Shown here: piece after piece, positions 27,227 through 52,835 of the stretch
Position numbering within the stretch: the first letter of the stretch is position 1
Layout of the letters: every line of letters begins with the position of its first letter
Origin: a virus
Virus record (IMG/VR): IMGVR_UViG_3300032397_000006
Coordinates: 1-64,000 of that record
Strand: one strand, 5' to 3'
DNA: 64,000 nucleotides
Program-made: the position numbers and the translations under genes
Notes under the pieces: model-generated
Told to the model about the DNA's origin: nothing
The model's input: the letters and a program-made list of their open reading frames with translations, nothing else
Databases searched by the model: none

Positions 27227-27943
27227 CTAGTCCTCCGCGCGATGATTTCGCATCGCAAACTCCACGATTTTCACCGCAGCCTCTGCGCTTAACGCAGGCT
27301 GCAAACTCTTAAGCAGCGCGACCGCTTCGGCCTTACGCATGCGTCTGCGCTTCTTCTTTCGCAGCGGCTCCCCGCCCTCGAGCGACTGCCGGCGCAAAGG
27401 GAAGCCCTCGCCCGGGGCAACGCCTGGATCCGTTACCGCGCTGCCTGCAGAGAGCGACTTCGCAAGCACCTGTAATGCCGTCGCCTCGTTCACGGGGCAG
27501 CGTGTGATCGCCACCTCGCGCACGACGGCCTTACGCACGATCTTGGGATTGCTCGGGTCGCGCTCGACGACGGTACCTTCGACCGAGAAGCCAAGGCGTC
27601 GATCGCTCTTTTGCAGAGAGCGAGCGAGATCCCAAATTCGATCCGCGCGAGCCGTCCCTTTCAGGAGATAGCCCTCGACATACCACCCACGGTGCCCGCC
27701 CGAGAGCTCGCGGAGCTCGACCTTTGCCGGATACCCGAGCACCGCGTCCGTGTCCGCGCTGTGGTTGTCGTTAAACCAGCCAGACTTGAGAAAAGGCCCG
27801 AAATCTAGGCCTTCCTGCAGCAATACCTCAGACTGCCTGTCGAGGTTGTCTGTCGACACGATCCCCGCGATGCGTCGATCCCGATCGCCCTCGCCGGCTT
27901 TCTCGAAAAACTCTGCATCCAGATCGAATGAAAAGTGCTGCAC
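27227..27943 (-). CDS. Prohead protease (HK97/U35-like, SPO1/Twort type)
   Basis: IAGIVSTDNLDRQSE, GWFNDNH, LGFSVEG and VAITRCPVN motifs; start moved to GTG 27943 behind GAGGGG. Confidence 0.88.
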   Translation of the reverse strand: MQHFSFDLDAEFFEKAGEGDRDRRIAGIVSTDNLDRQSEVLLQEGLDFGPFLKSGWFNDNHSADTDAVLGYPAKVELRELSGGHRGWYVEGYLLKGTARADRIWDLARSLQKSDRRLGFSVEGTVVERDPSNPKIVRKAVVREVAITRCPVNEATALQVLAKSLSAGSAVTDPGVAPGEGFPLRRQSLEGGEPLRKKKRRRMRKAEAVALLKSLQPALSAEAAVKIVEFAMRNHRAED

Positions 27944-27971
27944 TGAACCCCTCTGGTAGGGGCCCAAAACG

Positions 27972-37384: not shown

Positions 37385-38125
37385 TCACGTCAAAACGTCG
37401 CCCGCGATGGCCACGCGCACCGTCGTCACCTTCGCAGTCTCGAGACTGCTCAGCGTGATCGAGCTCGTGACCGCCGTAAGCAACGCGTACACGTACACGC
37501 CATCCGCACTCGACGCCGCGGCGTCGATCGGCTTGCGCAGCTGGATCGGCGCCGAGCCGATCAGCGGATCGGTCCCGAGGTCACTCGTCAACGCAGCGAA
37601 ACCAAGCACCGCATTGATGGTCAGCACCTCGACCTTGCCGGATAGCGAGGCGTTCGCGCCGCTCACTCGGATCTGCCCACCGTCGACCGTGAACGGTAGG
37701 AAGGCCAGCCCCGCCAGCACCGCGGCAGAATTGAGCCGCTGCGCGCACTGCGCGGCAGACTGATCGCCCGACAAGAACGTGCCCGAAACCGTCACGCCGT
37801 CAACCTTGAAACTGAACGCCTGTCCGCCCGTAAACGCAGTGGGGAACGTGCCCCCCACACCGAGCAGCGTGGCCACGGTGCCAACCGTCCCGCCCAACGT
37901 GACCTCGAGCGCCCCGTCCGCGTCGATCCAGATCAGGCGCGCTTGCGCGACGTCGCCAAAGTCGACCACCACGTTCTGCTCGCCCGCGTTCAGGGAGTAC
38001 GTCCCCGACTCCGCGCGTGCGAGCGAATCAAGTGCCTGCGACACACTGCCCGCAAACAAAGCAGGCGTGAGGGTCGCGCCGAGGCCCACGTCGAGAGTCA
38101 TTTCTACGCTATGCCGGACGCCCAT
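37385..38125 (-). CDS. Putative virion structural protein
   Basis: 246 aa, Gly/Ala/Thr-rich, directly after the portal. Confidence 0.6.
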   Translation of the reverse strand: MGVRHSVEMTLDVGLGATLTPALFAGSVSQALDSLARAESGTYSLNAGEQNVVVDFGDVAQARLIWIDADGALEVTLGGTVGTVATLLGVGGTFPTAFTGGQAFSFKVDGVTVSGTFLSGDQSAAQCAQRLNSAAVLAGLAFLPFTVDGGQIRVSGANASLSGKVEVLTINAVLGFAALTSDLGTDPLIGSAPIQLRKPIDAAASSADGVYVYALLTAVTSSITLSSLETAKVTTVRVAIAGDVLT

Positions 38126-38128
38126 TTT

Positions 38129-39877
38129 TCAATCCTCCGTGATCTCGATCGTCTGCTCAGCGCCACGCACTACTCGAGTCACGCGCGCCTTACGTAGCTC
38201 GTTCGTCGCAAACTGCGCGATCGCCCTCGCCGATTTCCGCGCTTGCTGCGAAATCAGCTTGTCGTCGCCCTCGTCGTCGTCGCCCTGTGCGGCCCACGGC
38301 GGCGTCTGCCCGTCCTGGTGGAGCAAGTTATCGTCGGGCTCCTCGTCGGGCTGCGCTGGCCCCGCCGCGCCTGCGCCCGGGGGCTGCCCGGGCTCCCCTT
38401 GCCCAGGCTCCCCGCCTTGCTGCTGTTGCTGCGCGGCTGCGTCCTTTTGAAGCGCCCACTGGATCCAGGTGGAATTCAGAATCGCCTTACCCTGTTCGCC
38501 GGGCAGTGGCTTCATGTCCTCTTGAGCTCGGATCTCGTTGACCGTCTTGTAGGTAGAGCCGTCCTTCGACAACGCTTCGCGATCCGCTTCCTCACCCGAG
38601 CCGAACATACCGCCGAAAATGAATTCGAAGTCGGGCGCGAGATCCCAAATCAGGTGGCTGTTGATCACGTCCGTAAAGTGATCGGATAGCGGACGCAGGC
38701 CCTTGTCTTTCGACTCCGCGAGTTTCGATTCTTGATCGCCCGTGTTGAGCGAACTCGACTGCCCAGTGTTGCCGAACTGGAAATTGATCTCGAGCGGATC
38801 GACGCCGTACACCGCGCAGATCAGCTTAGTCACCCAATCCATCCACGCCGAGAATTCCATTTCTCGGTTGTTGGAGTGCATCGACACCCATTGAATGTCT
38901 TCGCTGTTTAGGATCGGCGTACGCCACGCATTCTCGACGCCGGAGATCATCGAATACCACTGGCGCCGGAAGGCACGCATTTGCTTATCCGGGATCGTAC
39001 CCTTGATATTAAGCAGCCCCTTTACCGCGCTGCCTTGCTGGAAAAAGGCCTGGTTATACTGGAATCCGAAAAGCCACGCAGTCACGAGGCGAATGATCTG
39101 CTCGATCGGCGAAAACCCAAACCCGTTCGTACGCAGGTCAGAGCGGGGATTCATGATGCACCACGCGAGCTCATCGTATGCGAACTCAGCGATCACCGTG
39201 TTTTCGTAGACCTGGACGTAGCTCACGCGCTGCCGCATTTCCGCCATGCCTGCATGCTCAACGTCGAGCACCGCGGGACGGATCGTTTCGCTTGGTAACG
39301 CAATGAAACGCGACACGCGCCCTTCTCGATCGGAGAGCTTTTCAAAGGCCCACTGATCGTAGGTCAGGGTGTCGCGCAGCCCCTTTTTCAAGAACGAGCG
39401 GAAGCTATCCCGGTCTCGAGCTCGCTCGCCGGTCTGCAGCACGCCGGTAGTCTCGAGCATGCGCTCAATTTCCATCGCGCGTTTACGCTCGACCGGAGTC
39501 ATGCTCCGATTTCGATCACGCCGATCTCGCAAGATCACGCGATAGCCCTTGTCATACTTCCCTTGTTGCGGGCGAGCGAACTGCGCCATTTGATTCGTGC
39601 GCAGCTGAATGATCGCAGCGAGGGGGGCGCACGTCATGGACATGTGCCGCAAAGCCTCGTAGGTCAGCATGGACGGACGCTGGCGCCACCCTCCCCAATC
39701 GTTGATCGCGTAGGGATCGAAGAACATCGCCTTAGGCTTTTCTTGCGTAGGCTCCGCGAGCCCACGCGCCTGCAGCGCCTTCACCATTTCATCGGCGGAG
39801 ATATCCTCGTTGCTCCCATTTGCCCACGCGCTGAGCGCGTTAACAGACCGTCGCCGGATATCGTCAATGATCCCCAT
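38129..39877 (-). CDS. Portal protein (SPO1/Twort-like)
   Basis: AIIQLRTNQ, RDTLTYDQ, NPRSD...GFSPIE, FFQQGS..KGLLNI, REMEFSAW, SKDKGLRPL and TVNEIRA motifs. Confidence 0.93.
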   Translation of the reverse strand: MGIIDDIRRRSVNALSAWANGSNEDISADEMVKALQARGLAEPTQEKPKAMFFDPYAINDWGGWRQRPSMLTYEALRHMSMTCAPLAAIIQLRTNQMAQFARPQQGKYDKGYRVILRDRRDRNRSMTPVERKRAMEIERMLETTGVLQTGERARDRDSFRSFLKKGLRDTLTYDQWAFEKLSDREGRVSRFIALPSETIRPAVLDVEHAGMAEMRQRVSYVQVYENTVIAEFAYDELAWCIMNPRSDLRTNGFGFSPIEQIIRLVTAWLFGFQYNQAFFQQGSAVKGLLNIKGTIPDKQMRAFRRQWYSMISGVENAWRTPILNSEDIQWVSMHSNNREMEFSAWMDWVTKLICAVYGVDPLEINFQFGNTGQSSSLNTGDQESKLAESKDKGLRPLSDHFTDVINSHLIWDLAPDFEFIFGGMFGSGEEADREALSKDGSTYKTVNEIRAQEDMKPLPGEQGKAILNSTWIQWALQKDAAAQQQQQGGEPGQGEPGQPPGAGAAGPAQPDEEPDDNLLHQDGQTPPWAAQGDDDEGDDKLISQQARKSARAIAQFATNELRKARVTRVVRGAEQTIEITED

Positions 39878-39886
39878 TTGCCTGCC

Positions 39887-41860
39887 TTAGCCGTGAGGGC
39901 AGGAACATGCCCCGAATGCGTGCGTGAGCATATCCGTTTGCTGCACCGCACGGTAACCGTGGATCACGCAGTCGCCCGCGATCGAAGCTTTTGCTACACG
40001 GTCGCGCTCGCTGTAGTCGAGCGCCACGTTTGCGGCGCGCCCGAAAGTCGGCACCTGCCGATCGTCTGCGAATCGCACCAACTTGAGATGCGAGGGGGCG
40101 ACAGAGAGCCGCGTCGAGGAACTGTGCGCGTGCTGGTTTGCGTCGAGCGCTTTGAACCAATCGTTTCCCTGACTGAGCTGAAACACCGCACCGCCGATGC
40201 CCGCCGATCCTGTCGCCGTGTGGCTGTCCTCGTCGGTGGGTAGCGTGCTTTTCGCCGCCAGCGCTTCGGTCACACCGATGATTTGTCGCTCGCGCAAGAT
40301 CTTGGCTACCGCGTCCTGCGTGACCTTGTAGCGCGACGCGGCTGCTCGCAAATTCTTACTCGTGCCCAGCGACTGCACGAGCTGCCCCATAATGGCTTGA
40401 GCCATTGCTTGCTCGTTGTACATTTGCTGCGGCGATTCTTGCGACACCACGCCGTAGCTCGTCTCGATAAAGCTCACGAGATACGGCATGAGAAACCGCT
40501 CCGGAATCGCGACGTCGGTACCGTCGTCTGCAAAGCCGTCGAGTCCCTTGCGCAGCACGTTGCGCTGCAACGCGTGGAAAAGTGATTTCCCAAGAGCACG
40601 CGCGCTTTTCTTGACCCTGAACGGATTCTGCTTTTCTTGCTCAGCTGCGTACTCGCGATCGAGGCGCTCTGCATACTCGCGCGCTTCCGCTTGCGGTTCG
40701 TACGTGTCCAGGTGTTCCTTGGCTGCGGCCTCGTGCTTCTCCGCTTCAGAATGAAAGCCGTACTTCCTGTGATCCTCTGCGACGATCAAATGCGCTTCTG
40801 CTGCGCGTTTGTGTAGCACTTTCTTGTTTTTTGCGCGCTTATTCGACGCTTCCATATCCGCAATCTCTGCGTCTGCTTTCTTAGCGCGCAGCAGACGGTG
40901 GATTTTCTCGTCGACCGCAACGGGCGCGGGAGGCGCAGAGCCCTCGATATACGCGTATTGCCAGCCTCCCTTACCGTCTGGCTTGCGCGTAATGTACTTG
41001 TGCCCAGGTCGCTCCGAATTCCAGCTCGATCCCTCCGCCTTAAACATGGAGGATTTTCCGAACGGCTTCTTTCCGCCGAACGCGGGAGGCTTCTTTTTCG
41101 GCTTGGCCTGATCGCCACCGAACGGCTTAGCCTTTGGCTTCGCGCCGAACTGCTGCGCGGGCTTTCCTGTACCGCCGTCTGCATCCTGATCGTCAGGTAC
41201 GCCGTCGTCGTCGGCATCCACGTCCTGATCGTCGGGCACGCCGTCCCCGTCCTGATCAGCATCCTGATCGTCAGGCACACCGTCCCCGTCCTGATCGGGC
41301 GCGTCCTGATCGGGCTGCTCGTCGCCGGGACCACCGCCGCCAGCCTCGAGCCCTTGCCCGCCCTGCACCGCACGCACGAGCTTGCGCACAAGCTTGTGGT
41401 ACGTGTCGAGCAGCGCCATGGAGTTATGGTGCTGCGCGCCGTGAAATCCCTTCGCGGCGTAGTAGTCGCGCTCTGCATCGGCGATTTGCTGCACGAGTGC
41501 CTGAGGGTCTTCGCTCGCGTCGCCACCTGCGTCCGCGCCGTCGTCGCCCTCCGGCAGATCCTCCCCATCGCCCTCGTCGTCGAAGCCCTCGTCGTCGCCT
41601 TCCTCGCCCGCGCCGTCGTCGAGCTCGTCACCGTCACCATCACCAGGCCCGGGCTCGCCCTCGTCGCCATCGGGCTCCTCGCCCTGATCGTCGCCCTGCC
41701 CGTCGTCGGGTGCCGTGTCAGACGCGTCCGGAGCTCCGCTGTTCGGATCCTGATCGTCGGGCACACCGTCCCCGTCCTGATCATTCTCCTCGTCAGCGCC
41801 CGCCTTTTTCTTGGCGAACGGCGGCACGGCTTTCAGCAAAAGATCGATCGCGTCTAGCAT
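39887..41860 (-). CDS. Acidic modular protein with DxDGDG repeats and one GHKY-PDGKGGW motif
   Basis: 657 aa; DQDGDGVPDDQD repeats; several LxK[AS] sites. Confidence 0.75.
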   Translation of the reverse strand: MLDAIDLLLKAVPPFAKKKAGADEENDQDGDGVPDDQDPNSGAPDASDTAPDDGQGDDQGEEPDGDEGEPGPGDGDGDELDDGAGEEGDDEGFDDEGDGEDLPEGDDGADAGGDASEDPQALVQQIADAERDYYAAKGFHGAQHHNSMALLDTYHKLVRKLVRAVQGGQGLEAGGGGPGDEQPDQDAPDQDGDGVPDDQDADQDGDGVPDDQDVDADDDGVPDDQDADGGTGKPAQQFGAKPKAKPFGGDQAKPKKKPPAFGGKKPFGKSSMFKAEGSSWNSERPGHKYITRKPDGKGGWQYAYIEGSAPPAPVAVDEKIHRLLRAKKADAEIADMEASNKRAKNKKVLHKRAAEAHLIVAEDHRKYGFHSEAEKHEAAAKEHLDTYEPQAEAREYAERLDREYAAEQEKQNPFRVKKSARALGKSLFHALQRNVLRKGLDGFADDGTDVAIPERFLMPYLVSFIETSYGVVSQESPQQMYNEQAMAQAIMGQLVQSLGTSKNLRAAASRYKVTQDAVAKILRERQIIGVTEALAAKSTLPTDEDSHTATGSAGIGGAVFQLSQGNDWFKALDANQHAHSSSTRLSVAPSHLKLVRFADDRQVPTFGRAANVALDYSERDRVAKASIAGDCVIHGYRAVQQTDMLTHAFGACSCPHG

Positions 41861-41921
41861 AGGTCTCCCCTCGGATTCTCGCCGAGAGTACCCTAGCGCC
41901 TACGCGAGCGCGAGCGTTGAC

Positions 41922-42092
41922 CTACTTCGCCGCGGACTCGCGTGCAACGCACGCACGGAATCGGACAACATCCTCGCTATCCTCGAGACTTGAATCCGCC
42001 CTGTCGTCGCTGTCGTCGCGCACGTAGTTTTTCAAGCGTTCAAGCATATCCTCGCGACTGAACGAGGCCTTTCTTGGTTTCTGATCCTCCAT
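41922..42092 (-). CDS. Small acidic protein coupled to the zeta-like gene
   Basis: TGATG overlap at 42090-42094; MEDQKPRK..., 56 aa. Confidence 0.5.
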   Translation of the reverse strand: MEDQKPRKASFSREDMLERLKNYVRDDSDDRADSSLEDSEDVVRFRACVARESAAK

Positions 42093-43387
42093 CACACCCT
42101 CCGGAGCACGAGCTTTACAGCTCGCATAGACTTCATCCAACCACGGGCGCGCGCGATCAAATGTCGGCGTAATCCCGTCTGTTTGAATTTTCGCACATAG
42201 TTCGGATCAATAACAACGTCGGGCTGATTTTCTCCGCCCGCCCACACTAGGCGCGGTTTCGGGCCTGCGTTGTCAAATAGCGAGAATTCATGAGCTCTAC
42301 GCGCTATCTGCTCGAAATTCCCAGGAATGACGTGGTGCGCTTCCCGCACGAAATTGTCAGGCACGTAACGCCCGGTATTCCGCGCTCGGGAGCCCACGCG
42401 GGAGACAGCCTCAGCGAGCGGAATGTGTGGCATCACGAGGTGCACGTGGTAGCCCGCGGCTTTCAGTGCCTCGATTCGCCCAATGAATTTCTCCGTGTTT
42501 TTCCCCGTGCCGTCGAGAATCAAATTCTTGCGCTCTGCCACAGCGCGAGCTCGGACCTTTTCGCCGAGGTCGCTGGACTCCTCGTGTGCCATGGCCGCGG
42601 CATCTTTCGCCGTCACCGTCGATCCGTCCGCTGTGAGTCCGTACGCGAGAGCTCGCTGATACTCAGGTAGCTTTTCCTTACACGCGTCTGGATCGGACAC
42701 GACGAAATCATTGTGGTCGCCCACTAGCGTGGCGAGGATCGAGCCCTTGCCGACGCCGGAGCCTCCCATGGTGACGATCGCCGTGGGCGTGCGATCGAGC
42801 GGCACGGGCTTCACGTGCTTGGTAAATGAATCCACGATCGCCGCGTGGAGCGCTTTACGCTCAGGCGTGTAATCCTTGAAGCGCACCGGGCGAATACGAC
42901 CGACCTCGATTGTGTGCGCGGTTTTCGTTTCCGCAGGAAGCCCGATCGAAGTCGCGGATTCGAGCCAAGCGCGATCGCGCTTGGTTGCGTGCGTTGCGCG
43001 CTCCGCGTCTGAAAATACGTGCACCACTTCGGCCGGGCTCACGATCGGGAAACTGCTGGGCGCCTCGCGACGCTGCACCGGCTTTGTGCCCGTGTGTCCG
43101 TAGTCGTAGTTCCAGCCGCCCTTACCATCTGGCGTGCGACGAATGTATTTATGCCCGGGCCGCTCCTCGCCCTTTTCCGACTTGAGCAAATCGAGCGGGA
43201 TCACGTGCGCCTTTTGTGTCGGCTGCTGCTGCGCTTGCTGTCGAGGAAAGCGAGCTCGAAATCCGCGCTCCCTCGAGCGTCGGATGTCCGAATATTTCTT
43301 AGGCTGCGCGAGCCCTTGTGCGAGGCCTCCGCGCAGCATATCGGCGAGGCGTGCCGTCTCGCGTGGATCCTTCGGCGGTAGGCTCAC
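42092..43387 (-). CDS. Zeta-toxin-family P-loop kinase with an N-terminal GHKY-PDGKGGW motif
   Basis: MGGSGVGKG Walker A, DPDACKEKLPEY, AHEESS, NLILDGTG, R...TGRYVP and LFDN; GTGA-coupled start at 43387. Confidence 0.85.
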   Translation of the reverse strand: MSLPPKDPRETARLADMLRGGLAQGLAQPKKYSDIRRSRERGFRARFPRQQAQQQPTQKAHVIPLDLLKSEKGEERPGHKYIRRTPDGKGGWNYDYGHTGTKPVQRREAPSSFPIVSPAEVVHVFSDAERATHATKRDRAWLESATSIGLPAETKTAHTIEVGRIRPVRFKDYTPERKALHAAIVDSFTKHVKPVPLDRTPTAIVTMGGSGVGKGSILATLVGDHNDFVVSDPDACKEKLPEYQRALAYGLTADGSTVTAKDAAAMAHEESSDLGEKVRARAVAERKNLILDGTGKNTEKFIGRIEALKAAGYHVHLVMPHIPLAEAVSRVGSRARNTGRYVPDNFVREAHHVIPGNFEQIARRAHEFSLFDNAGPKPRLVWAGGENQPDVVIDPNYVRKFKQTGLRRHLIARARGWMKSMRAVKLVLRRV

Positions 43388-46300
43388 GTGTCCCCCCAAA
43401 TGCGCTTTCCTGCGGTCGCGCCCTGATAAATGTGCGAGGCGATTTTGCCTGCACGGTGCTGATCTTCAATGTAACTCATGGAGTCTCGATAAATCGAGTC
43501 TGCATTTATTGCGCGCGCACTGTCTGGCATGCTGTCGCCCAACGCTACGTTCGGTTTGCCCCCTGGAAATGTCACCTCAGCGAATACGAAATCCGCGTGA
43601 TCCTTGTGCGCTTCGTGGAATTTCGAGAAGTTTTTCGCGCCCTCTGCGTAGCTGTCGGCGAATACGCGTGCGTCGACCATACGCCCCGCGCCCACCGCAC
43701 GTGCGACAGCGCCTGGCCAAGCGCGCTTTGGATCCGAGTGCACAAACATGAACGTGGGCTTTATCCCACGTTTCGCGCACTCAGAAATCAACCACTCGTT
43801 CTCCGTTGCGTTCTGCTCGCCTGCCGCGTCCCAGGTAGCAGCTACTGACTTCGGCAGATCAGGACGCGCGGCAAGGCCTACGCCTTTGCCCGCCGCACAG
43901 CCGCCGCTCGTGACCAAGATCTTACGGTCTCCCGGTGCCATTTTCGCGATCTCGTCAAGGCGCGTGATAAAGGCACGCTTCGCGATCGCGTTCGCAGTCT
44001 GATGCAGCGCAGTGTTGTACAAGCTCCGCGCCTTGGCACGCTCGAGATTCATCGGCTCGCCTGGCTTATCCGGAGGCAAGTCGTCGCGCTTCCAGTCGGC
44101 GAGCAATGCCTTCGCGCCATCTGTTTCGAACACGTAATTGTTCTTTTTCGCGATCTCGCCGAAAGCCTGAGCTGTACCGTTCGGGTCGCGCTCGAATGCG
44201 TCCGCGAAACGCGTCTCGATCGCACGCTCCTCGTGCGTGAGGTTAGGCAGCTTCGGCACACCAGGCGGGGGCAGCACAGCATCGCCCGGAATGCCGACGC
44301 GTGCGGCTTTCTCGTTCGGCTTCTGCGGCGTGGCGCTCCTCGAGAGCGGCTTACGCTTGACGGCTTGGCCTTGCGCAGATCGCGCCGTGCGTGGTGGCGC
44401 GTTCGTGTAGAAATACTGCCAGCCGCCCTTACCATCTGGCTTGCGCCGCATGTACTTGTGGCCGGCGCGTTCTTGCCCCGGTACAAATGCCTTTTTCATC
44501 GCACGACGGCGCACGCAAAACGTCGTCTGCGATTCCTTCGCACCGGCTTCTACACTGCGCAGTTTCTTGTAGTAGTCCGGACGCTCGCACAGGTGATCGA
44601 GGGCGATATCCGCGGCTTTCTCGAGATCCTTTGTGTGCTCGAGCTCGACCTGCATTCCTGCCTGTAGATCGGTCGCTGTCCAGCGCGCATGCTCCCACTC
44701 CACACCGAGGCGCTTCGCAGCGCTCATAGCTGCATCGTGCGAAACACGAAGTGCTTTCGACTTCCGCGTAGTGTCAGTGGCGCAGCTCGCGCAAGGCACA
44801 ACGGGATCGCAGCCAGAGCAGCTCTTTTTCAGCCCCTTTTTCGCCTTCGCGCGAGCTCGGGCCTTACGCCCCTTTGCGCGGTGCGACCACTCGAGCGCCT
44901 TACCTTCTGGCAGCTTGCCCTCAGCTTCTGCAGCGAAAGCCCAACGGCGCTGCTTTTCGCTAAACGGGTGCTGCATCTTGCCCTTCGCGAAAGCTTCAAG
45001 CTCGTCGAGCGGATCGAGTGATTTCTTTTTCTCAGCTGCCGCCAGCTGCTTTGCTACGCCGTGCGCATAGCTTTCAGCCAGCAGAGAAGCTCCGCCAAAT
45101 TCGACATCCTTTGGTGCCACGTGCGACATCTCGCGCACAAAGTGCTCGGCCTCCGCTTTGCTCGTGAGTGCTCCGCCCGCGTTGATGGAGTATCCGCTCG
45201 GAATATGCGTGACGTGGTAAATGCCGTACTGCCCGCGCGTGATTCCGTAATCGCCGATCGCCGGCATGGACGTGACCTCAGGATCGCGGATTTCCTTACC
45301 GTCTTTATCGCGGATCGCCAAGTGCACGTCGACCGTGCGCAGCTTCTCAGGCTTGATGCCCGCGACCTTTTCAGCTGCGCGCATAGCGTCGCGGTGCTTC
45401 GCGACCTTTTCGAATGCAGATTCCATCGCCTCGTTCAGACCAGGCGCCGCTTTGCGTGAAAACACGTAGGGGTGGCTGTTCTCCCAAGACTCGCGCCGCG
45501 CCTTTGAAGCGACGTCGAGATCCTTACGCGCTTCGGAGAGCTGCTGACTGTGGGAGGCAGCCTCGCGCGCGTGCTCGTGTGGCGTATCGCCCGCGACGAC
45601 GTGTGAATAGACGTAGTGCCAGCCCCCGCGACCATCGGGCTTGCGAGTCAGGTATTTGTGCCCTGCAACCTCGTCGCCCTTCGCGGCCTTGCTGAGCTCG
45701 CCGAGATTGTCTAGCGCATCGCCACTCTTGAGAGCCAGCATTCCCCATTTTTGCGACTCGGCGAGGCCTGCGCGCATGCCTGAGAACGCACCCTCAGACA
45801 TACCTGCCCGCTCGAGAGCAGCATCTAAACGCTCGCGTGTGACCTTCGCATGCGCCTTGGCCTCAGCGTGCCGCGTCGAACCCGGAGTGTGCGCGTATTG
45901 GCTGGCGACACGCTCTGCGCTCGCGCGCTCGTGCTCGCGCGACGCTGCCACCACAGCGCGCTGTGCAAGTGGCGCCTTACGCTTCGCATGCGCGTCTGCG
46001 TAGTCGTAGCGCCAGCCGCCGTGCCCGTTCGGCTCGCGCTTGAGATACTTGTGGCTGGTTGCCTCGTCGCCCTTGGAGGCCTTGATCAAAGGCAAGAGTG
46101 CATCGATCGCGTCGGCTGATTTATACGCGAGCGAAGTCGTCTTGAGGGCAACCCTACGCACGGTGCTAGGACTCGCGCGCAAACGGGACACGGTTTGCTT
46201 GTTCCAGAAATGCTCGATCTTACGTTTCGCTTTGCGCTTGGCTTTACGCGCAGCGAGCGCGCCCTTGATCTTTGCGTAGACGTAACTCCAACCGCCCTTA

Positions 46301-47586
46301 CCGTCAGGCTTGCGCTCCGTGTACTGATGCCCTGCCTGCTCCCCGCCGCGTACAGCATCAGCCTTCGCTGCTTTAATAAACAGCACAGGTGCCGATTTCT
46401 CGACTTTTGCCGGACGCCACGCATCGGGCTTCGTGTCAGGCTTTACGCCGTCTGCATTCTTGTCGTAGGAGCTGTCTTTTATGTAGCCACGCGGCACGAC
46501 GTCGAACGTGCAGTAGATGCCCATAATACCGATCGTGCTCCCCCAATTTTCGGTTGTGATCGGCGACGCTTTGTAGACGCTGTGCCGCTCAGTAAGGATC
46601 TTTTTTCGCATCTCTTTCACAGCACCCCACAGAGCATCTTTCTCGCCCTTGTTCGCGTAGGTGCTGTGGAACTTGATCGTCGCCTTAGCAGTCGGGCGAA
46701 ATGTCTTCGGGTGCGTTTCGCGTATCACGCTAACGGTCCCTTTTTCGCCGAACGTCTTCGGTCCTTTCTCGATATCAGAGAGCAGCTTGTCTATTTCCGG
46801 TGGCGGCAGCTCGCCCTCTTTTTTAGAGGCCGCATGCTCCGCGCTACCCTCTGCGGGATATTCATAATCCCAGCCGCCCTTACCGTCTGGCTTGCGCGTA
46901 AGGTATTTGTGCCCCGGGCGCTCCTCGCCCTTGGCTAGAGATTTCTCGTATTTGAATTCCGCGGTCTCCCGCTCGTATTTCGGCACTTGATAAGGATCTA
47001 CGTGTTTCCACCGCCCCTCGTGCCATACGGGCTCGAGATTCTTTTTCTTGCGCGCAGCTGGTAAAGGCGCCGTAAATAGCGGCGTAGCCGGCTTGTGCTC
47101 ATCGATTCGCGCTTCGGAATAGCCGCCAGGCAAGCGCCGCGTGCGCACATACGAAGGGTAATTGCCGAGACTGCGCGGCATGTCGAAATCAACGTTGTCG
47201 GAAGTCGCGCCGTCTCCCTCCAATAGGTGCCCGAAAACCTTAATCTCTTTCGAGTGCCAGCTCCCGCCCGCCGTGGCCAGGTACACCTTACCGTTATGCG
47301 GCAGCAGAAAAGGCGCGCTGTGCCCCTCGGTCGCGGCTTGCTCGATCGCTTGCTTGAGCACGCTCGGATCAAAGGCGCCCACTTGTTTCTTGTGATCGGC
47401 GGGAGGCTTGTAGCTGTATTTCCATCCGCCTTTACCATCTGGCGAGCGCAGCAGATATTTGTGCCCCTCGACCTCTACGCCCTTCGCCGCTTTCTCGAGT
47501 AGCGCTAGGGGATCGAGCTCAGGCTGAGCTCTCACAAGGCTCAAGCCGATTGCGTGCTTTCGAAGTGCTGAGATCGCATCAGTCAT
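43384..47586 (-). CDS. Large modular (polyvalent) protein: six GHKY-PDGKGGW motifs, DUF5661-like domain, C-terminal zeta-like P-loop kinase
   Basis: ATGA-coupled start at 47586 (MTDAISAL); GMQVELEHT...IALDHL.E.PDYYKKL; ILVTSGGCAAGKG...RAVGAGRMVD. Confidence 0.8.
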   Translation of the reverse strand: MTDAISALRKHAIGLSLVRAQPELDPLALLEKAAKGVEVEGHKYLLRSPDGKGGWKYSYKPPADHKKQVGAFDPSVLKQAIEQAATEGHSAPFLLPHNGKVYLATAGGSWHSKEIKVFGHLLEGDGATSDNVDFDMPRSLGNYPSYVRTRRLPGGYSEARIDEHKPATPLFTAPLPAARKKKNLEPVWHEGRWKHVDPYQVPKYERETAEFKYEKSLAKGEERPGHKYLTRKPDGKGGWDYEYPAEGSAEHAASKKEGELPPPEIDKLLSDIEKGPKTFGEKGTVSVIRETHPKTFRPTAKATIKFHSTYANKGEKDALWGAVKEMRKKILTERHSVYKASPITTENWGSTIGIMGIYCTFDVVPRGYIKDSSYDKNADGVKPDTKPDAWRPAKVEKSAPVLFIKAAKADAVRGGEQAGHQYTERKPDGKGGWSYVYAKIKGALAARKAKRKAKRKIEHFWNKQTVSRLRASPSTVRRVALKTTSLAYKSADAIDALLPLIKASKGDEATSHKYLKREPNGHGGWRYDYADAHAKRKAPLAQRAVVAASREHERASAERVASQYAHTPGSTRHAEAKAHAKVTRERLDAALERAGMSEGAFSGMRAGLAESQKWGMLALKSGDALDNLGELSKAAKGDEVAGHKYLTRKPDGRGGWHYVYSHVVAGDTPHEHAREAASHSQQLSEARKDLDVASKARRESWENSHPYVFSRKAAPGLNEAMESAFEKVAKHRDAMRAAEKVAGIKPEKLRTVDVHLAIRDKDGKEIRDPEVTSMPAIGDYGITRGQYGIYHVTHIPSGYSINAGGALTSKAEAEHFVREMSHVAPKDVEFGGASLLAESYAHGVAKQLAAAEKKKSLDPLDELEAFAKGKMQHPFSEKQRRWAFAAEAEGKLPEGKALEWSHRAKGRKARARAKAKKGLKKSCSGCDPVVPCASCATDTTRKSKALRVSHDAAMSAAKRLGVEWEHARWTATDLQAGMQVELEHTKDLEKAADIALDHLCERPDYYKKLRSVEAGAKESQTTFCVRRRAMKKAFVPGQERAGHKYMRRKPDGKGGWQYFYTNAPPRTARSAQGQAVKRKPLSRSATPQKPNEKAARVGIPGDAVLPPPGVPKLPNLTHEERAIETRFADAFERDPNGTAQAFGEIAKKNNYVFETDGAKALLADWKRDDLPPDKPGEPMNLERAKARSLYNTALHQTANAIAKRAFITRLDEIAKMAPGDRKILVTSGGCAAGKGVGLAARPDLPKSVAATWDAAGEQNATENEWLISECAKRGIKPTFMFVHSDPKRAWPGAVARAVGAGRMVDARVFADSYAEGAKNFSKFHEAHKDHADFVFAEVTFPGGKPNVALGDSMPDSARAINADSIYRDSMSYIEDQHRAGKIASHIYQGATAGKRIWGDT

Positions 47587-50500
47587 CGCTTCCCCGTTTC
47601 CACAGCGTCCCGGATCGTAGCCCATTCTCGCACGTTGAAGCGTATCGAAGGCTTCTGCGGCGCCGCCCCATGGAAAGCGTATTTACCACTGTTCCGGCGT
47701 GCGAGGGCCTTCCTTCGGCGCCTGGAGGCCTTCACTTCCTTTTCGGTCTGCACGGTCCCGTAGATGCCCTCGAAATCGGGGGACTCCTGCGAAGGGCTGT
47801 AGCGCTGCACGACGTAGGATTTCACGAGAGCTCCGTGGTTGCTCGGGTCGGTCACGAACGCGGCGAAATCTTCGAACGCGACCGCGCGCACTTGCCCCAA
47901 GAATCGAGGATCGTCGTAGTGCGCTTGGTAAGCCTGCACCGCGGCACCGAGATTCGAAAACCCGAGCATGCACTTCTGTTCGTCTACGTGCACGAAGTCG
48001 GGCGACTTGAGCTGATCGATCACGAACACGTAAGGCGCCATCTTGTCGGGCCCGACGTAGACGTCCACGTGATCGCCATCCGTGCCTTGCGTGCGCCGCA
48101 CATAGCCGTAGTCGTGCACCATCTTTGTTTTGCCTGCGCGCTTCGCGTGTGCGTCGTACCAGTGCCGGTAAGATCCTGCCTGGTTTTCGACGCTCACCTT
48201 TAGCCCGCGGAAATCCCGACGCCTGTGCAGCTTGCGCGACTTCTCGAGCGGAGCTTTCAAGCTGTCGATCACTTCTGTAATCGCATCGTCGCTGTCCTCA
48301 ATATGCGCGCCGAAACGCGCGAAAGCCTGCCTGATCGCAGGTTCAATCATGCGCCGCCCCCCGGGCTCGCTCGCGAGCTCTGCGTACTCCTCTCGATATT
48401 CAGCCAGCGCATTGATCGCGTGCGACACTGCTTGCTTTCTGCCCTCAGGCGAAGCAATAGGCTGCAGCTCGTAGGAGCGTTGATCCTCTTTTGATAGAGG
48501 CGCGTCGTAGGTCACGGTGCCGTGCCGAAAAGCAGGATGCTTTCCAATCGAGGAAAATCCTTTAGGCGCTGTGAACGTACCGATCGGCCTATTCTGCATA
48601 CCGTACACGTAGTGCCAGCCTCCCTTACCATCAGGGTGACGCTCCGCGTAAAGGTGCCCCGCTTGCTCCTCGCCCTTTGCCGCTTTACGCAACACGAGCA
48701 GCGCCTTCAATACAGCATCCTGAAACGCGTGGCGCTTATCCCAATCGAAATCGAGCGCGAATTTCGACGGTCTGCCGGGTGTCTCGACGCGCGTATAGAA
48801 ATCCTCAGCTGCGGGCTTATATTCGTAGCCCTTGCCTTTATGGTGCTCGCCCGCGTGTCCGCCCGTCGTGAAATGCATCTCATGCGCTCCGCGGTGCGAA
48901 TGAATTACTGAGTCTTGATTAAACTGCTTTCCGAGCGCGCGCATAACACCAAACTCGCTAGGCGAATCGTGGTGCACCATGAAGGCATTACTTTTCTGCG
49001 GCTTCGCGCTCTCGTGATGCACGATAAAGCTCGCCTCACGCGAACCATAATGCCCCTCGACCTCGGTATAGCGGAGCTTGCGCTTTTTCAGCTCGCCTCG
49101 CAGGCGTTCGTGTCGCGCTTTGAATTCCGCGTGATCCTCAGACATGTCCTTTTCGCGCGCGTCGTTTCCGTTGCGACCTGCGCTGATAATCGAATAGGTG
49201 CCGTGCTCGAGCAGATCGTCCAGCTGCGGACGCGTGAGACGCACCTCGCCCGCGGGTTTGCGTGGAGGTCTGTCGCTCGGGTGCCCGGGCAGATCATAGC
49301 CGTAGCGCCAGCCTCCCTTACCGTCTGGCGTGCGGCGCACGTACTTGTGCCCCGGACGCTCGCCTTCGCTGCCCTCGCGCGCTTTACGGATCGCTTCGCC
49401 CCACGGAATGATATGCATACTTTTCTCCGTACCCTCTGCGCGGGCTTTGACGGCTGCGTAAGTGTCAGGGTGCACCGCAGGCGCATCGCCATCGTCGCGC
49501 GTCGCGTTGCCCTTCATGTCCACGCCCAGCCACATTCGCCAGTGTCGATCAAGCTGCCCGATCGAGGAAATCACTCCGGGCTTAGCGAGCAGTTCCTTTG
49601 CCATCTTTTCGCGCTCGGCCTTCGGCAGCTTGCTCGCGTGATACTGCTCGACCTCGAGTTTCTGTTGCTGCTCTGCGGCAACCTTGTCCTGCGCTGCGCG
49701 CTTCGCTTGCGCCGCTTCGCGTTCGGCCTGCGCGGCTGCCTCGCGTGCTGGAGCGCCCGCTTCCCACTCCGCTTGCTTTTGCTTCTCTGCAGCCTTCGCG
49801 GATTTCTTTTCAGCCTCTCGCCGCGCTTCGCGTTCGGCCTCGACCTTCTCTGTCTCGTGCGGCAACGAAATACGATGGCGCTTGAAAGCATCCGGATCCG
49901 GATCGCCGAGCTCCCCTTGTGCTTCCTGAATCGCTGCTGCGGGGACCTGCAAATCATCGCGTGCCATCACGAGCGTTTCTTCTTCGCCCTCGTACGCACC
50001 TAGATCAGCCTCGTGCTCCGCGTGAAACAAGACGGCTTCAACAGGCACGTCGAGCGTGACCACGGCGCCGCGCGTTGCGTACTGCGTGCCGAAGTCGTGC
50101 GCGCTTTCGTGGTCGCTGGTCCAGCTCGACAAGCTGCGCACTGCAACGGGAACGGTGCCGCCCTGCGCTTGCTTCGCTTGCTCGACAAGGGCCTTACCCT
50201 GGTCGTGCGCAATGCCGCGATGAATGCGCACTGTGCGCTCGCCCTTGGCAGCGAATAGCGCCTGCGTCGCTGCGTACTGCCTGATCGCCATCGCTTCGCA
50301 GTCGTCGATTTCCTTTTTCGAGATACGGGACGCACGCGTAACCGCTTCTGCAAACGTACGCTTTTCGTCTGCGCTTGCGCGACCTCGAGCGATCTTGCCG
50401 ATCAACGCGAGTTGTGGCGTGGTTTTCGTCATCCATTCATTTCGCCAAGCGTTACGCACGTGTGACTCGTCGGAATGATCGGCGAAAGCATCATCCGTGT

Positions 50501-52835
50501 GGGAAATGCCTTTCATGGACGCGGCGAGCGCTGCGATTTTCTTTTTATGCGCAGGCGACATGCCGAGATCAGGAGATACCGCGTAAGTGTTCTGCGCTGC
50601 CGGCGTGCGCACGCCCTTACTGTCCTCGTAGAAGTAGTTATGCCCGCCCTTACCATCGGGCTCACGGCGAATGTATTTGTGTCCCGGGCGCTCGCTGCCT
50701 TCGCTCTTTTTCAGTTTGAATCTGGCGAGCACTTCTGGCTTGCGCATTACGCGCTCGATCGGACGCCCAAAACGGTCAGTATCTTCTCCCTCCTCGGATG
50801 ATTGCGAGCCCAGCAGGAGGGCGTACTTTCCTTGATAGGCTTTTGCGTGATCTAATGCCCGCGAGACGTCGCTACCGTCTCGGCTACCTAGATCAATTGC
50901 GCTAGTCCCGTCGAGAACATCATCCGTAGGTTCACCATCCTCCCAGCGGCGGGACTCTGCTAAAATAGAACCGACCTCAGGTGGATCTGCGTCGTCAACA
51001 ATGCGCAAGCCGATCGTATGAAATTCAGGCGCATATTCTTTCAGTATCGACTTCACGGCGTCTATGTGCAACGGCGAGATGTCAGTTCTCTCGCGCTGCT
51101 TGAGTCTATCTTCGAATTGGAGGTCGGAGAATTGCCGCGTAGGCGCGAGCTCGCGCACTTTCGCAACATGCTCGCGCAGCTGATCGAGCGACATCGCGCC
51201 TTCATCGAAAGTCGCGAATAAATCGAGGCTCAAGTCGAGCGCGAGGTGCGGCTCAATCTGAAAATCAATTGCGCGTAGCCCTTTGATCTTGGTGTTGAGC
51301 TCTGCTGCTGCACGCTTACCGATCGGCTGCACGTAGCCGATATCGATCATCTTCGGTTTATCGCCCTCGATCACGAATGAGTTTTCCTTGAATTCAGGCG
51401 CTGTGAATTCGTGCTCGCGCAGCACCTTCGCAATCGTCTGGTGCGCCTCCCACAAGCCTTTCGAACCCCACCCCCCGGGTCTGCCCTCGACCTCAGCGCG
51501 CACGAGCGTGTCAGTGTCCGCGTCGTATTTTTCGAACGAGGGCACGAGGTCTTTCGTGCGCGGATCCTTGCTCAGCACCTCGAGAGCGTGCGCTTCATTC
51601 TTGCGCGAGCTCACGCCGCGGCGACCGACCTTGTACGCGGAGGCTCCATCCGTGAACACGATGCCCTCAGCGCCCGCCCCTAGCAGGCTCAGGGTGCCCG
51701 CTCTCGCGCCAGCCTTCACGGCACGTGCCGCAGCCTGCGGGAGCTCCGCGTGGACGGCGGCAGGCGCGTCCTCGAGTAACTTTGCGACGTCGACCTGTTC
51801 CGGGCGCTCCAACTTTTTCAGCGCTTCGGCCAGATCCTGATCAATGACCAGCTTACCGAAGGCGTCGGCATCCTTGCGGAGCGCGTGCGACATATCGATC
51901 AACTCGAGTGCGAATTTGTCCCGTTGCGCGTCTTGCTTCGGCGGGAACTTCAACACGTGTCGTAGCTGCGCTTCCCACTCATATTCGAGATTCGCGCCGC
52001 GAGGCGTGTAACGCTGTCCATTGCGTGCGTACAGACTCTCAAGTCCGTCGAGATCACTCTGCTGCGGAGACAGATGCCGGTAGCCGTCGTAGGGCTCCGC
52101 CTTGCCCGCCTTGCCTACGTCGAACATGAAGGCCTTACCGTCGTCATCGACACCGATCTGCGGCGTGTCGCCGAGCACGTAGCCGGCTTTGTGCATCGCG
52201 AGCACCGTATCGTGGGCCGCGTCGAGCTGCTCTAGCGTGAGCTTGTCGGGAATGCCGAGATAGCGCTTGATCGTGTAGCCGCGCCCGTCGTGCTCCACGA
52301 AGCGCTCAGGCAGTAGCCCGGGCACTCCGGCATCGCGGAGAGCTTGCTGTGTCTCGTGCTGCTCGCGTGCGACCTCGACAGCTTTCTGCGCTGTCTTGTA
52401 CCAGGGGTTTGACGGCTGATAGGGGACAACCGTGCTGACTTTGACAACGTTGTCCCCTGACTTGAAAACAAGACCGTCGTCGCCCTTACCAAGAAACTCG
52501 GCAGTACCTCCGGTCACGGCGTCGATATCCGGATCTCCGCTTTTCTTATCGCTGACTACGCGGCCTTCTAAATCATCCTTGTACATAGCAAGCGCGTCGT
52601 GCGAAATCTTGTGCCCGTAGCCAGGCACCGTCGCGTGAAAGCCGACGCTCGCGTGCGTGTCGTCGGAATCAAATACTTTCCATTTGAGCGTGCCGCGCAT
52701 TCCGAGCTTTTCGTGCGGCGTAATGTCGATCTCATGCCCCGCTAAATAGCGATAGAGCCAGCCGCCCTTACCATCAGGATGGCGCTCGAGATACTTGTGC
52801 CCCTCTACGGTTTCGCCCTTGGCTGCCTTCTGCAT
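47583..52835 (-). CDS. Large polyvalent protein (1750 aa): two kinase-like domains, ADP-ribosyltransferase, SAM-lyase-like, DarA-C-like and pyrophosphatase-like domains, four GHKY-PDGKGGW motifs
   Basis: LGKGDDGLVF..VVK; LGAGAEGIVF..AYK..MIDIG; IHRG..SSWT..GEEE; YSIISA..GHY..E.SF..FNQDSVI; NRPIG..PKG..HG.V.Y..PL..YELQPI; DYGYVRRTQGTDGDHVDVYVG..DEQKCMLGF. Confidence 0.8.
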   Translation of the reverse strand: MQKAAKGETVEGHKYLERHPDGKGGWLYRYLAGHEIDITPHEKLGMRGTLKWKVFDSDDTHASVGFHATVPGYGHKISHDALAMYKDDLEGRVVSDKKSGDPDIDAVTGGTAEFLGKGDDGLVFKSGDNVVKVSTVVPYQPSNPWYKTAQKAVEVAREQHETQQALRDAGVPGLLPERFVEHDGRGYTIKRYLGIPDKLTLEQLDAAHDTVLAMHKAGYVLGDTPQIGVDDDGKAFMFDVGKAGKAEPYDGYRHLSPQQSDLDGLESLYARNGQRYTPRGANLEYEWEAQLRHVLKFPPKQDAQRDKFALELIDMSHALRKDADAFGKLVIDQDLAEALKKLERPEQVDVAKLLEDAPAAVHAELPQAAARAVKAGARAGTLSLLGAGAEGIVFTDGASAYKVGRRGVSSRKNEAHALEVLSKDPRTKDLVPSFEKYDADTDTLVRAEVEGRPGGWGSKGLWEAHQTIAKVLREHEFTAPEFKENSFVIEGDKPKMIDIGYVQPIGKRAAAELNTKIKGLRAIDFQIEPHLALDLSLDLFATFDEGAMSLDQLREHVAKVRELAPTRQFSDLQFEDRLKQRERTDISPLHIDAVKSILKEYAPEFHTIGLRIVDDADPPEVGSILAESRRWEDGEPTDDVLDGTSAIDLGSRDGSDVSRALDHAKAYQGKYALLLGSQSSEEGEDTDRFGRPIERVMRKPEVLARFKLKKSEGSERPGHKYIRREPDGKGGHNYFYEDSKGVRTPAAQNTYAVSPDLGMSPAHKKKIAALAASMKGISHTDDAFADHSDESHVRNAWRNEWMTKTTPQLALIGKIARGRASADEKRTFAEAVTRASRISKKEIDDCEAMAIRQYAATQALFAAKGERTVRIHRGIAHDQGKALVEQAKQAQGGTVPVAVRSLSSWTSDHESAHDFGTQYATRGAVVTLDVPVEAVLFHAEHEADLGAYEGEEETLVMARDDLQVPAAAIQEAQGELGDPDPDAFKRHRISLPHETEKVEAEREARREAEKKSAKAAEKQKQAEWEAGAPAREAAAQAEREAAQAKRAAQDKVAAEQQQKLEVEQYHASKLPKAEREKMAKELLAKPGVISSIGQLDRHWRMWLGVDMKGNATRDDGDAPAVHPDTYAAVKARAEGTEKSMHIIPWGEAIRKAREGSEGERPGHKYVRRTPDGKGGWRYGYDLPGHPSDRPPRKPAGEVRLTRPQLDDLLEHGTYSIISAGRNGNDAREKDMSEDHAEFKARHERLRGELKKRKLRYTEVEGHYGSREASFIVHHESAKPQKSNAFMVHHDSPSEFGVMRALGKQFNQDSVIHSHRGAHEMHFTTGGHAGEHHKGKGYEYKPAAEDFYTRVETPGRPSKFALDFDWDKRHAFQDAVLKALLVLRKAAKGEEQAGHLYAERHPDGKGGWHYVYGMQNRPIGTFTAPKGFSSIGKHPAFRHGTVTYDAPLSKEDQRSYELQPIASPEGRKQAVSHAINALAEYREEYAELASEPGGRRMIEPAIRQAFARFGAHIEDSDDAITEVIDSLKAPLEKSRKLHRRRDFRGLKVSVENQAGSYRHWYDAHAKRAGKTKMVHDYGYVRRTQGTDGDHVDVYVGPDKMAPYVFVIDQLKSPDFVHVDEQKCMLGFSNLGAAVQAYQAHYDDPRFLGQVRAVAFEDFAAFVTDPSNHGALVKSYVVQRYSPSQESPDFEGIYGTVQTEKEVKASRRRRKALARRNSGKYAFHGAAPQKPSIRFNVREWATIRDAVETGKR

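Follow-up and report, generated by a model that had tools for sequence, protein, structure and literature searches.

Introduction

How a phage chooses the proteins that it packs into its capsid and injects into the host is known for few models, namely the capsid-targeting sequence (CTS) of T4, the Dar hierarchy of P1, the MuF/gp7 proteins and the inner body of phiKZ. Here we analyze a window of 64,000 nucleotides, the first 64 kb of the 104,085-bp IMG/VR virus record IMGVR_UViG_3300032397_000006, which is rated complete, and in which four large genes close to the head genes carry 12 copies of a cassette of about 35 residues, composed of a short leader, a putative cleavage site after lysine and a predicted small beta-hairpin, hereafter the tag. 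A preliminary description of this DNA had proposed that polyproteins bearing the tag are loaded into the head and cut there into units. We regard this reading, a tag-and-cleave cargo system of polyvalent effector polyproteins built into an SPO1-like procapsid, as evenly balanced between right and wrong, and grade its parts separately below.

For polyvalent proteins, packaging and a function early in infection have been predicted, and it was proposed that they are processed by zincin-like metallopeptidase (MPTase) domains and anchored in the head through MuF (Iyer, Burroughs, Anand, de Souza, Aravind 2017, PMC5512222). The proteins described here and their relatives are similar in being giant chains of ADP-ribosyltransferase (ART), InPase, DarA, zeta kinase, RelA/SpoT, ddrB-ParB, kinase and NUDIX domains encoded beside head genes. 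In contrast, neither MPTase nor MuF was found here, and each module is provided with a site of the prohead-protease type and a hairpin. The text of that study holds no comparable hairpin or repeat, and the hairpin is not among its 131 domains and 40 LPDs as represented in Pfam.

In T4 (Mullaney and Black 1996, as cited in PMC9024508 and PMC10052503), a CTS is carried by the internal proteins IPI-III and Alt and removed by the gp21 prohead protease, Alt being an ART that is packaged, processed and injected. The two systems would be alike in that a short N-terminal peptide marks prohead cargo and is trimmed by the prohead protease. They differ in that the cut in T4 falls after Glu and the site here after Lys, and in that the CTS lies upstream of the cut and is lost whereas the hairpin lies downstream and is predicted to be kept; furthermore, T4 cargo consists of separate small proteins and not of multi-cassette polyproteins, and the sequences show no similarity.

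The Dar proteins of P1 are anti-restriction proteins packaged into the capsid, and the 30 residues at the N-terminus of DarB suffice to load a reporter (PMC9024508). The genes lie next to portal and protease in P1, and protein 1 of the window likewise contains a DarA_C domain, but in P1 the cargo consists of separate proteins that are loaded in hierarchical order, and no cassette is repeated. An origin of the tag within DarA, or a likeness to the DarB signal, was checked and rejected, the hairpin motif being absent from the N-terminus of DarB and the tag profile finding nothing in the P1 genome. Related in their head proteins are the Herelleviridae, with homologous portal, protease, scaffold and capsid proteins and a Lys-Ser or Lys-Ala in the column of the processing site of the A511 capsid protein Cps (K23↓S24, the arrow marking the bond after which the mature protein starts). 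Unlike the phage of the window, the cultured Herelleviridae that were checked lack the tag (profile search of the whole CP-51 genome; tblastn of two copies against a phage collection). In phiKZ and SPN3US, many head-internal proteins are cut several times at a simple motif and their propeptides were proposed to serve in targeting (PMC10052503, PMC5694885). Their protease has another specificity than the after-Lys cutting proposed here, their long propeptides are not conserved, and there is neither a shared portable tag nor a polyprotein of unrelated enzymes.

As a concept, the system has precedents in the T4 CTS, the DarB signal, the propeptides of phiKZ and SPN3US and the polyvalent proteins; judged by sequence comparison, the cassette does not appear to be a member of the CTS, Dar or propeptide systems. 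What is new is a conserved, uncatalogued cassette of site and hairpin that is repeated in polyproteins, bounds exchangeable effector modules and is tied to one head lineage.

Four polyvalent proteins with a repeated cassette

The tagged genes are four co-oriented open reading frames (ORFs) of 1750, 1413, 435 and 657 aa on the minus strand, sited between terminase and portal, and the portal gene is the one directly downstream of the 657-aa ORF. Together with the head genes of the window they are:

47583..52835, minus strand: putative polyvalent cargo polyprotein 1, 1750 aa, 4 cassettes (Pfam, PHROG, regex scan)
43384..47625, minus strand: putative polyvalent cargo polyprotein 2, 1413 aa if the longest ORF is taken, 6 cassettes (regex scan, Pfam)
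42092..43399, minus strand: putative cargo protein 3, 435 aa, 1 cassette followed by a zeta-toxin-like P-loop kinase (Pfam)
39887..41860, minus strand: putative cargo protein 4, 657 aa, 1 cassette (PHROG, regex scan)
38129..39877, minus strand: portal protein (Pfam Phage_portal 7e-21, phrog_12 2.5e-51)
27227..27967, minus strand: prohead maturation protease, the presumed cutting enzyme (phrog_1028 7e-44)
26328..27221, minus strand: scaffolding protein (8 h-x-K-[ASG] sites, h being a hydrophobic residue)
24862..26262, minus strand: major capsid protein (phrog_752 5.6e-91)

A regular expression (regex) for the PDG-x-GG-aromatic core, run on all six frames of the window, found the core 12 times, always on the minus strand and inside the four cargo ORFs, and nowhere else in the window. 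The distribution of 4+6+1+1 copies over four large co-oriented genes directly upstream of the portal gene, itself recognized by both Pfam and PHROG, is the one given in the preliminary description. The core consensus is H-K-Y-x-x-R-x-P-D-G-K-G-G-W-x-Y-x-Y, and when aligned the copies show 9 invariant and 5 nearly invariant columns. A profile built from them rescored each copy at 59-70 bits (E 4e-17 to 2.5e-20) in the 104-kb genome and retrieved one more copy, the 13th, outside the window (genome position 65913-66002); scores of this size and the additional copy exclude chance. The cassettes of the window lie as follows:

52740..52835, minus strand: cassette 1 of protein 1, N-terminal (M-Q-K↓A)
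50622..50723, minus strand: cassette 2 of protein 1
49290..49391, minus strand: cassette 3 of protein 1, leading the SAM-lyase module
48597..48698, minus strand: cassette 4 of protein 1, leading the DarA_C module
47404..47505, minus strand: cassette 1 of protein 2
46852..46953, minus strand: cassette 2 of protein 2
46270..46371, minus strand: cassette 3 of protein 2
45994..46095, minus strand: cassette 4 of protein 2
45601..45702, minus strand: cassette 5 of protein 2, whose module is the N-terminus in the homologues P0008 and P0019 (BLASTP, AlphaFold model)
44401..44502, minus strand: cassette 6 of protein 2
43094..43195, minus strand: cassette of protein 3, leading the zeta kinase
40943..41044, minus strand: cassette of protein 4

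What follows the copies is unrelated from one to the next, as had been claimed before, the 15 tag-free segments sharing no pairwise BLASTP similarity at E<=1e-3. The 13th copy belongs to a protein of 469 aa encoded downstream of the large terminase (genome position 64668-66077; L002:2668-4077, minus strand), in which a leader ending L-R-K↓A is followed by the hairpin and by about 380 residues of a Lys/Ala/Gln-rich predicted coiled coil.

The domains that Pfam, PHROG and NCBIfam recognize belong to the phage polyvalent repertoire, and by this comparison the four proteins are assigned to the phage-type polyvalent proteins. In fact, unrelated effector domains stand in one chain (SAM lyase, DarA_C and InPase in protein 1), and the genes are phage-encoded and adjoin virion morphogenesis genes. 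The first ~670 aa of protein 1 are without an assigned domain; the assigned regions are:

49965-50252, minus strand: DRAT-like ART region, protein 1 (below the Pfam cut-off)
48792-49190, minus strand: SAM-lyase family, protein 1 (29.8 bits against a cut-off of 28)
48456-48611, minus strand: DarA_C, protein 1 (Pfam)
47856-48224, minus strand: InPase, protein 1 (4.9e-32)
44548-44721, minus strand: DUF5661, protein 2, directly ahead of cassette 6 (Pfam)
42293-42817, minus strand: zeta-toxin-like P-loop kinase, protein 3 (Pfam Zeta_toxin 1.7e-24)
39896-40555, minus strand: C-terminal module of protein 4, ~220 aa (phrog_11550 'internal virion protein')

Other PHROG matches of the cargo proteins bear the names 'minor head protein', 'virion structural protein' and 'released from the phage upon host infection', and we consider it very probable that all four are virion cargo. 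The preliminary description had called them effector polyproteins for counter-defence; their standing as virion-type polyvalent proteins is upheld by comparison, while counter-defence is suggested by domain names only (SAM lyase, DarA_C and a weak ART-like region).

A similar repertoire is found in tagged proteins elsewhere. Among 69 relatives scanned with Pfam, Zeta_toxin occurs in 6 and InPase, ART-PolyVal, ddrB-ParB and RelA_SpoT in 4 each, with DarA_C, DUF5661, Kinase-PolyVal and NUDIX also represented, and GNAT, a tRNA-nucleotidyltransferase/HD protein and a DarB-like methylase-helicase come from a second, wider search. The database names of these relatives refer to the cargo domain only and, where domain positions are listed, the tags lie outside and upstream of the domains. 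Pfam scans of the window proteins and the 69 relatives contain no MPTase domain, and Phage_Mu_F (PF04233) is found neither in the whole genome nor among the Pfam families of the 69.

Predicted structure and distribution of the hairpin

Within the cassette, the leader is a short, amphipathic, acidic helix, often of the form D-x-[IL]-D-x-L-x-x-h-x-K, and the hairpin is basic and aromatic and starts, family-wide, 2-13 residues past the Lys. AlphaFold2, run on an alignment of 42 cassettes, predicts that the leader and cut site are helical and that a loop and a hairpin of two strands (residues 27-32 and 38-42) follow, in keeping with the small beta-hairpin imagined in the preliminary description; the mean pLDDT is 88 over the 10-residue block that contains most of the hairpin and 63 over the whole cassette model. 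In the AlphaFold model of protein 3, residues 140-420 form a confident kinase domain (pLDDT >90) and residues 1-139, tag included, are unstructured. The alignment behind this model was devoid of canonical tag copies, so that the model shows only that the tag lies outside the kinase fold. That the tag might be part of the cargo fold was ruled out by the unrelated segments that follow it and by its detachment in the AlphaFold model.

The suspicion that the motif had no named family proved right: it matches no family of Pfam, PHROG or NCBIfam in searches run on the proteins and, for Pfam, also on isolated tags. Resemblance to DUF3892 (PF13031) reaches 13.9-20.2 bits against a gathering score of 22.3 and covers about 20 of the 71 profile positions, short of membership. 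A search of the ESM Atlas with the tag region gave no usable match, and the motif strings led to no relevant paper in a full-text literature search.

When 1.84 billion representative proteins were searched with the profile, 211 clusters were retrieved at E<=1e-3, 39 of them at E<=1e-10. In the best 149 of the 211 clusters, which hold 225 copies, 57 representatives carry 2-4 copies and 66 begin with the tag; the last fifth of the protein holds 5 of the 225 copies, and the median tail past the last copy is 302 aa. The scarcity of copies near the C-terminal end and the long median tail indicate that the tag precedes something. A scan of IMG/VR yielded 37 loci, mostly with 1-3 copies per large ORF and often with several tagged ORFs per locus. 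An iterated search with the head proteins of the window phage found, in about 30 of these loci, homologues of its portal, protease, capsid or terminase genes no more than ~10 kb from the tag genes and in the same orientation. Two larger contigs without a head gene in the locus have a capsid gene elsewhere, and the remaining three contigs without a head gene are 3-23% fragments. The tagged genes take different places, namely the interval from terminase to portal or from portal to protease, the position immediately ahead of the protease, or that behind the capsid gene. Concentration near portal and protease genes and fusion to varied domains, as in these loci and in the 69 relatives, are what had been predicted for a profile search with the 12 copies.

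When one genome each of 185,579 prokaryotic species was scanned, the tag turned up in only 2 loci; it is thus a feature of phage contigs that these prokaryotic genomes essentially lack, and an origin from prophages or conjugative elements was ruled out on this count. The head module beside which it is found is a distant relative of the SPO1-like Herelleviridae (portal 34-38% and capsid protein 27-35% identical). A tblastn search of 50,697 phage records with two tag variants recovered a divergent copy in the Thermus phages Lalka8, Lalka27a and Lalka27b and, additionally, two weak fragments from faecal samples. In Lalka8 (L001:8001-9284 and L001:10322-10621), gp4 opens with the divergent tag, M-A-K↓A followed by the hairpin, and its DarB-like neighbor starts with a leader-type helix ending L-L-A-K↓A without a hairpin.

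Variant hairpins also occur behind the same kind of Lys site, in the zeta-kinase homologues P0156 and P0175 and in the loci L005, L006 and L013; one has the turn V-P-K-x-x-G-K-G-F-x-Y-F-Y and others start G-G-K-Y-Y/W. Since several variants coexist within one phage, a wider superfamily of small basic hairpin tags is suggested.

We hypothesize that the hairpin is a head-loading label read by a lineage-specific head component, a proposal that we place at or slightly below an even chance. The hairpin would be a constant address label that binds a head-assembly component, the counterpart of MuF fusions or of the T4 CTS. This function is favored because the hairpin is the only constant element on all cargo, leaderless proteins included, because it is confined to one head lineage while the cargo domains are promiscuous, and because it occurs where MuF is absent. 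An unlikely alternative, although the strongest of those considered, accepts the cleavage and sees in the hairpin a retained nucleic-acid-binding or ejection leader, which would tether each module to the packaged DNA or thread it into the portal and tail channel, so that all fragments leave along with the genome. In its favor, the hairpin lies downstream of the cut and would stay on the mature product, when the T4 CTS is removed; only a function after cleavage would account for a copy in each module; the conserved residues (His, Tyr, Trp, Tyr and Tyr, together with Lys and Arg) would be apt for a strand surface that binds nucleic acids; the hairpin core, up to 78% identical across loci, is far better conserved than the head proteins (~27-35%), which points to a universal ligand; and in its size and position the short leader is similar to a propeptide of the CTS type. 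However, a generic DNA binder should have spread with the widespread cargo domains and not stayed in one head lineage, and some modules start at a site without a hairpin. Moreover, no similarity of the hairpin to a known nucleic-acid-binding fold was found, a sequence profile search of the Protein Data Bank (PDB) with the tag giving chance strings only and Foldseek with the hairpin model nothing below E=2.

Putative cleavage site

The Lys site can be compared with a described maturation site. The mature peptide of the A511 capsid protein is annotated from residue 24 in GenBank X91069.1, which places the cut at K23↓S24, in agreement with the cleavage after Lys that the preliminary description had named for capsid proteins of the SPO1/Twort type. 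In a MAFFT alignment these residues share their columns with K27↓A28 of the capsid protein of the window (bases 26179-26184), with an L-x-K↓A in each of the 11 capsid proteins encoded in tag-bearing loci and with the Lys-Ser or Lys-Ala of the Twort and CP-51 capsid proteins. By this homology the capsid protein belongs to the substrates that the Herelleviridae-type prohead protease cuts after Lys. The motif [LIVMF]-x-K-[ASG] was then counted in each protein and compared with 2000 residue shuffles per protein, which gave an enrichment of 6-8-fold in scaffold and protease:

27227..27967, minus strand: protease, observed 8, expected 0.98, reached by no shuffle (p<0.0005)
26328..27221, minus strand: scaffold, observed 8, expected 1.34, reached by no shuffle (p<0.0005)
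24862..26262, minus strand: capsid protein, observed 1 (the homologous site), expected 1.44
47583..52835, minus strand: cargo protein 1, observed 12, expected 6.8
43384..47625, minus strand: cargo protein 2, observed 13, expected 7.3
39887..41860, minus strand: cargo protein 4, observed 7, expected 2.3

In the window, a hydrophobic-x-Lys-[Ala/Ser/Gly] lies at most 14 residues upstream of the hairpin in 12 of 12 copies, which agrees with, and slightly widens, the earlier remark that Lys-Ala or Lys-Ser shortly precedes every copy. Family-wide, K-[ASG] is found within the same distance upstream of 186 of 193 internal tags, against 30% of random windows, with P3 mostly Leu, Met, Phe or Ile and an acidic amphipathic D-A-[IL]-D-x-L further upstream. 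Among the 66 N-terminal tags, 51 have a leader of 6-20 residues ending in the site, a layout analogous to that of the T4 CTS, and 12 have the hairpin at or near residue 1 and no site. The Lys site, being near-obligatory where something lies upstream and dispensable otherwise, appears to be an element separate from the hairpin that behaves as expected of a cleavage site. In the protease itself, a C-terminal extension (residues ~165-200) contains L-A-K↓S followed by a near-copy of the capsid N-arm (residues ~23-57). The same site and repeat are present in A511 ORF1 and in the CP-51 protease, and the extension may be a mimic of the capsid subunit that co-assembles the protease into the procapsid and carries a site of autocleavage.

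On these grounds the cargo is probably cut at its Lys sites by the prohead protease. The preliminary description had proposed as much; the Lys-[A/S/G] ahead of each tag does match the site of the head lineage, through the A511 alignment and the enrichment in scaffold and protease, and the cutting itself stands as a prediction. The hairpin might instead be a docking element on the P' side that presents the Lys site to the protease, so that only the linkers between modules are cut, a function that we judge improbable. The tight coupling of site and hairpin in internal copies would be explained by it, as would the need of other h-x-K-[ASG] strings inside domains, such as the Walker A loop of the zeta kinase, to stay uncut, and in the locus L009 (see below) a cassette is fused directly to the protease. 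Against docking, the Lys stands at variable distances from the hairpin (2-13 residues), the sites of capsid protein, scaffold and protease are without a hairpin, and docking would be of little use to the 12 of 66 N-terminal tags without a site or to the many leaders of just 6-10 residues.

Module boundaries

When the four cargo proteins were compared by BLASTP with tag-bearing representatives, the breakpoints of similarity coincided with the cassettes. Residues 638 and 644 of protein 2 correspond to residue 4 of P0008 and residue 9 of P0019, respectively, and residue 1394 of protein 1 to residue 13 of P0123. In protein 3, the stretch 62-83 aligns with positions 5-23 in eight homologues, and the same module is internal in P0020 and P0109. 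In P0037 the modules of protein 1 that flank tag 4 and DarA_C are joined directly, with exactly that module missing, P0040 joins the first and last modules of protein 1, and P0042 is a fusion of proteins 3 and 4 in one gene. The InPase module starts at the untagged site K1532↓S and is the start of the protein in four relatives. The homologue N-termini that map onto cassette positions bear out the claim that the tag leads modules. In L009 (9200-10291, plus strand), the protease ORF continues past its C-terminal extension through a full cassette into ~75 further residues, by its sequence a fusion of protease and cargo. Free fusion and fission at cassettes would be expected if the mature products were the same either way.

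Quite improbable, in our view, is the absence of any processing, with intact giant multidomain proteins, packaged or not, in which the cassette is a recurrent linker or interaction module and the Lys-Ala a part of its fold. The weak local resemblance to DUF3892 would fit a strand-turn element that also occurs in small domains, but these matches (15-20 bits) stay below the gathering score. Likewise, the variable Lys-hairpin spacing and the leaderless N-terminal copies without a site misfit a single fold, the site is homologous to a proven maturation site and enriched in scaffold and protease, and fusion and fission of modules fall exactly at cassettes.

The cassette copies are old and kept by selection on the peptide, since their synonymous positions are near-randomised: at identical residues, third-codon-position identity among the copies is 0.57 against 0.46 expected from codon usage. 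Recent duplication or a repeat at the DNA level was ruled out by this analysis. A repeat kept as a recombination anchor for the shuffling of cargo modules is accordingly most improbable, even though module breakpoints coincide with cassettes and the Gly-Lys-Gly-Gly-Trp codons are often identical between copies, for the 60-nt core has a mean nucleotide identity of only 70% (maximum 85%) and the peptide is conserved across phages of very different codon composition, as under selection on the protein.

Proposed tag-and-cleave system

In the tag-and-cleave system that we favor, the polyproteins would enter the procapsid, where the prohead serine protease (27227-27967) would trim capsid protein, scaffold and itself at h-x-K↓[A/S/G] and cut the polyproteins at their cassettes, the scissile bond lying after Lys and before Ala, Ser or Gly. 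The products would be separate kinase-like, ART-like, SAM lyase, DarA_C, InPase and zeta-kinase enzymes, each with the hairpin near its new N-terminus, and the released enzymes would enter the host with the DNA. Packaging, the actual cleavage, the binding partner of the hairpin and injection are what we infer from the comparisons. More tentatively, the cassette may serve a whole lineage of uncultured phages with SPO1-like heads as a portable code for capsid addressing and release, in functional replacement of MuF anchoring. Under such a code, any protein bearing the hairpin would be recruited by a conserved head component and freed by the protease at the Lys site, and the phages could swap, fuse and split injected counter-defence enzymes at will.

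Several points weigh against the proposed system. By analogy with the T4 CTS, the short leader helix that precedes the cut is as good a candidate for the targeting signal as the hairpin, and it could be the true one. The protease would need no hairpin, since the sites in capsid protein, scaffold and protease are, by homology, cut without one, and leader and site also occur without a hairpin at K1532↓S (InPase), at K881↓G of protein 2 and at K10↓A of protein 4. One tag would be enough to load a whole polyprotein, and loading alone leaves the multiplicity of tags unexplained. The motif h-x-K-[ASG] is short and degenerate, with an overall enrichment in the cargo proteins of only ~2-fold, and the aromatic and basic faces of the hairpin would also suit nucleic-acid binding. 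Lastly, the only cultured phages with a copy are the three Thermus phages, and their copy is divergent.

Short, strongly conserved and recurring ahead of hundreds of different enzyme modules, the cassette would give a sequence rule by which injected early effectors could be predicted in metagenomic phages, among them anti-restriction, nucleotide-signal-degrading and ADP-ribosylating enzymes, and the tag marks many modules of unassigned function as candidate counter-defence enzymes. It would also explain how polyvalent proteins without a metallopeptidase are resolved into active units, and why polyvalent genes fuse and split freely. If the reading is true, the cassette is a compact tag and release site with which foreign proteins could be loaded into phage heads.

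Neighboring genes and minor observations

The starts of proteins 2 and 3 most likely overlap upstream stops, for which reason the four cargo genes look translationally coupled. For protein 2 the ATG at 47586 overlaps the upstream TGA (ATGA, 47583-47586) and is most likely the start, which gives 1400 aa, the form present in the protein collection as P0181; from this ATG the protein would begin with the leader-type helix M-T-D-A-I-S-A-L-R-K. Similarly, the GTG at 43387 that overlaps the upstream stop (GTGA, 43384-43387) is most likely the start of protein 3. An acidic ORF of 56 aa (41923-42093, minus strand) starts at an ATG overlapping the zeta-kinase stop codon (TGATG) and may encode an inhibitor or partner of this kinase.

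The small domain DUF5661, which ends D-P-x-Y-Y, is repeatedly found directly upstream of a cassette (in the window, L005, L013, L019, L022 and L031) and looks like a cap that commonly closes the C-terminal end of the module before it. Protein 4 starts with a leader-type helix ending L-L-K↓A, its first site, which has no hairpin, and continues with ~250 very acidic Asp/Gly/Glu-rich residues (41050-41830, minus strand), in which repeated D-Q-D-G-D-G-V-P-D-D-Q-D units look like calcium-binding repeats. Its C-terminal module ends at least six otherwise different polyproteins (P0017, P0031, P0042, P0082, P0106 and P0109), in relatives always stands at the end of the polyprotein, and may be a head-anchoring end-piece.

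Directly after the portal gene lies a Gly/Ala/Thr/Val-rich ORF of 246 aa (37385-38125, minus strand), for which no Pfam or PHROG family and no tblastn match in cultured phages was found. It is kept at this position in 10 tag-bearing loci (L020, L021, L023-L028, L030 and L041), and this conservation makes it a candidate lineage-specific head gene and a possible partner of the tag.

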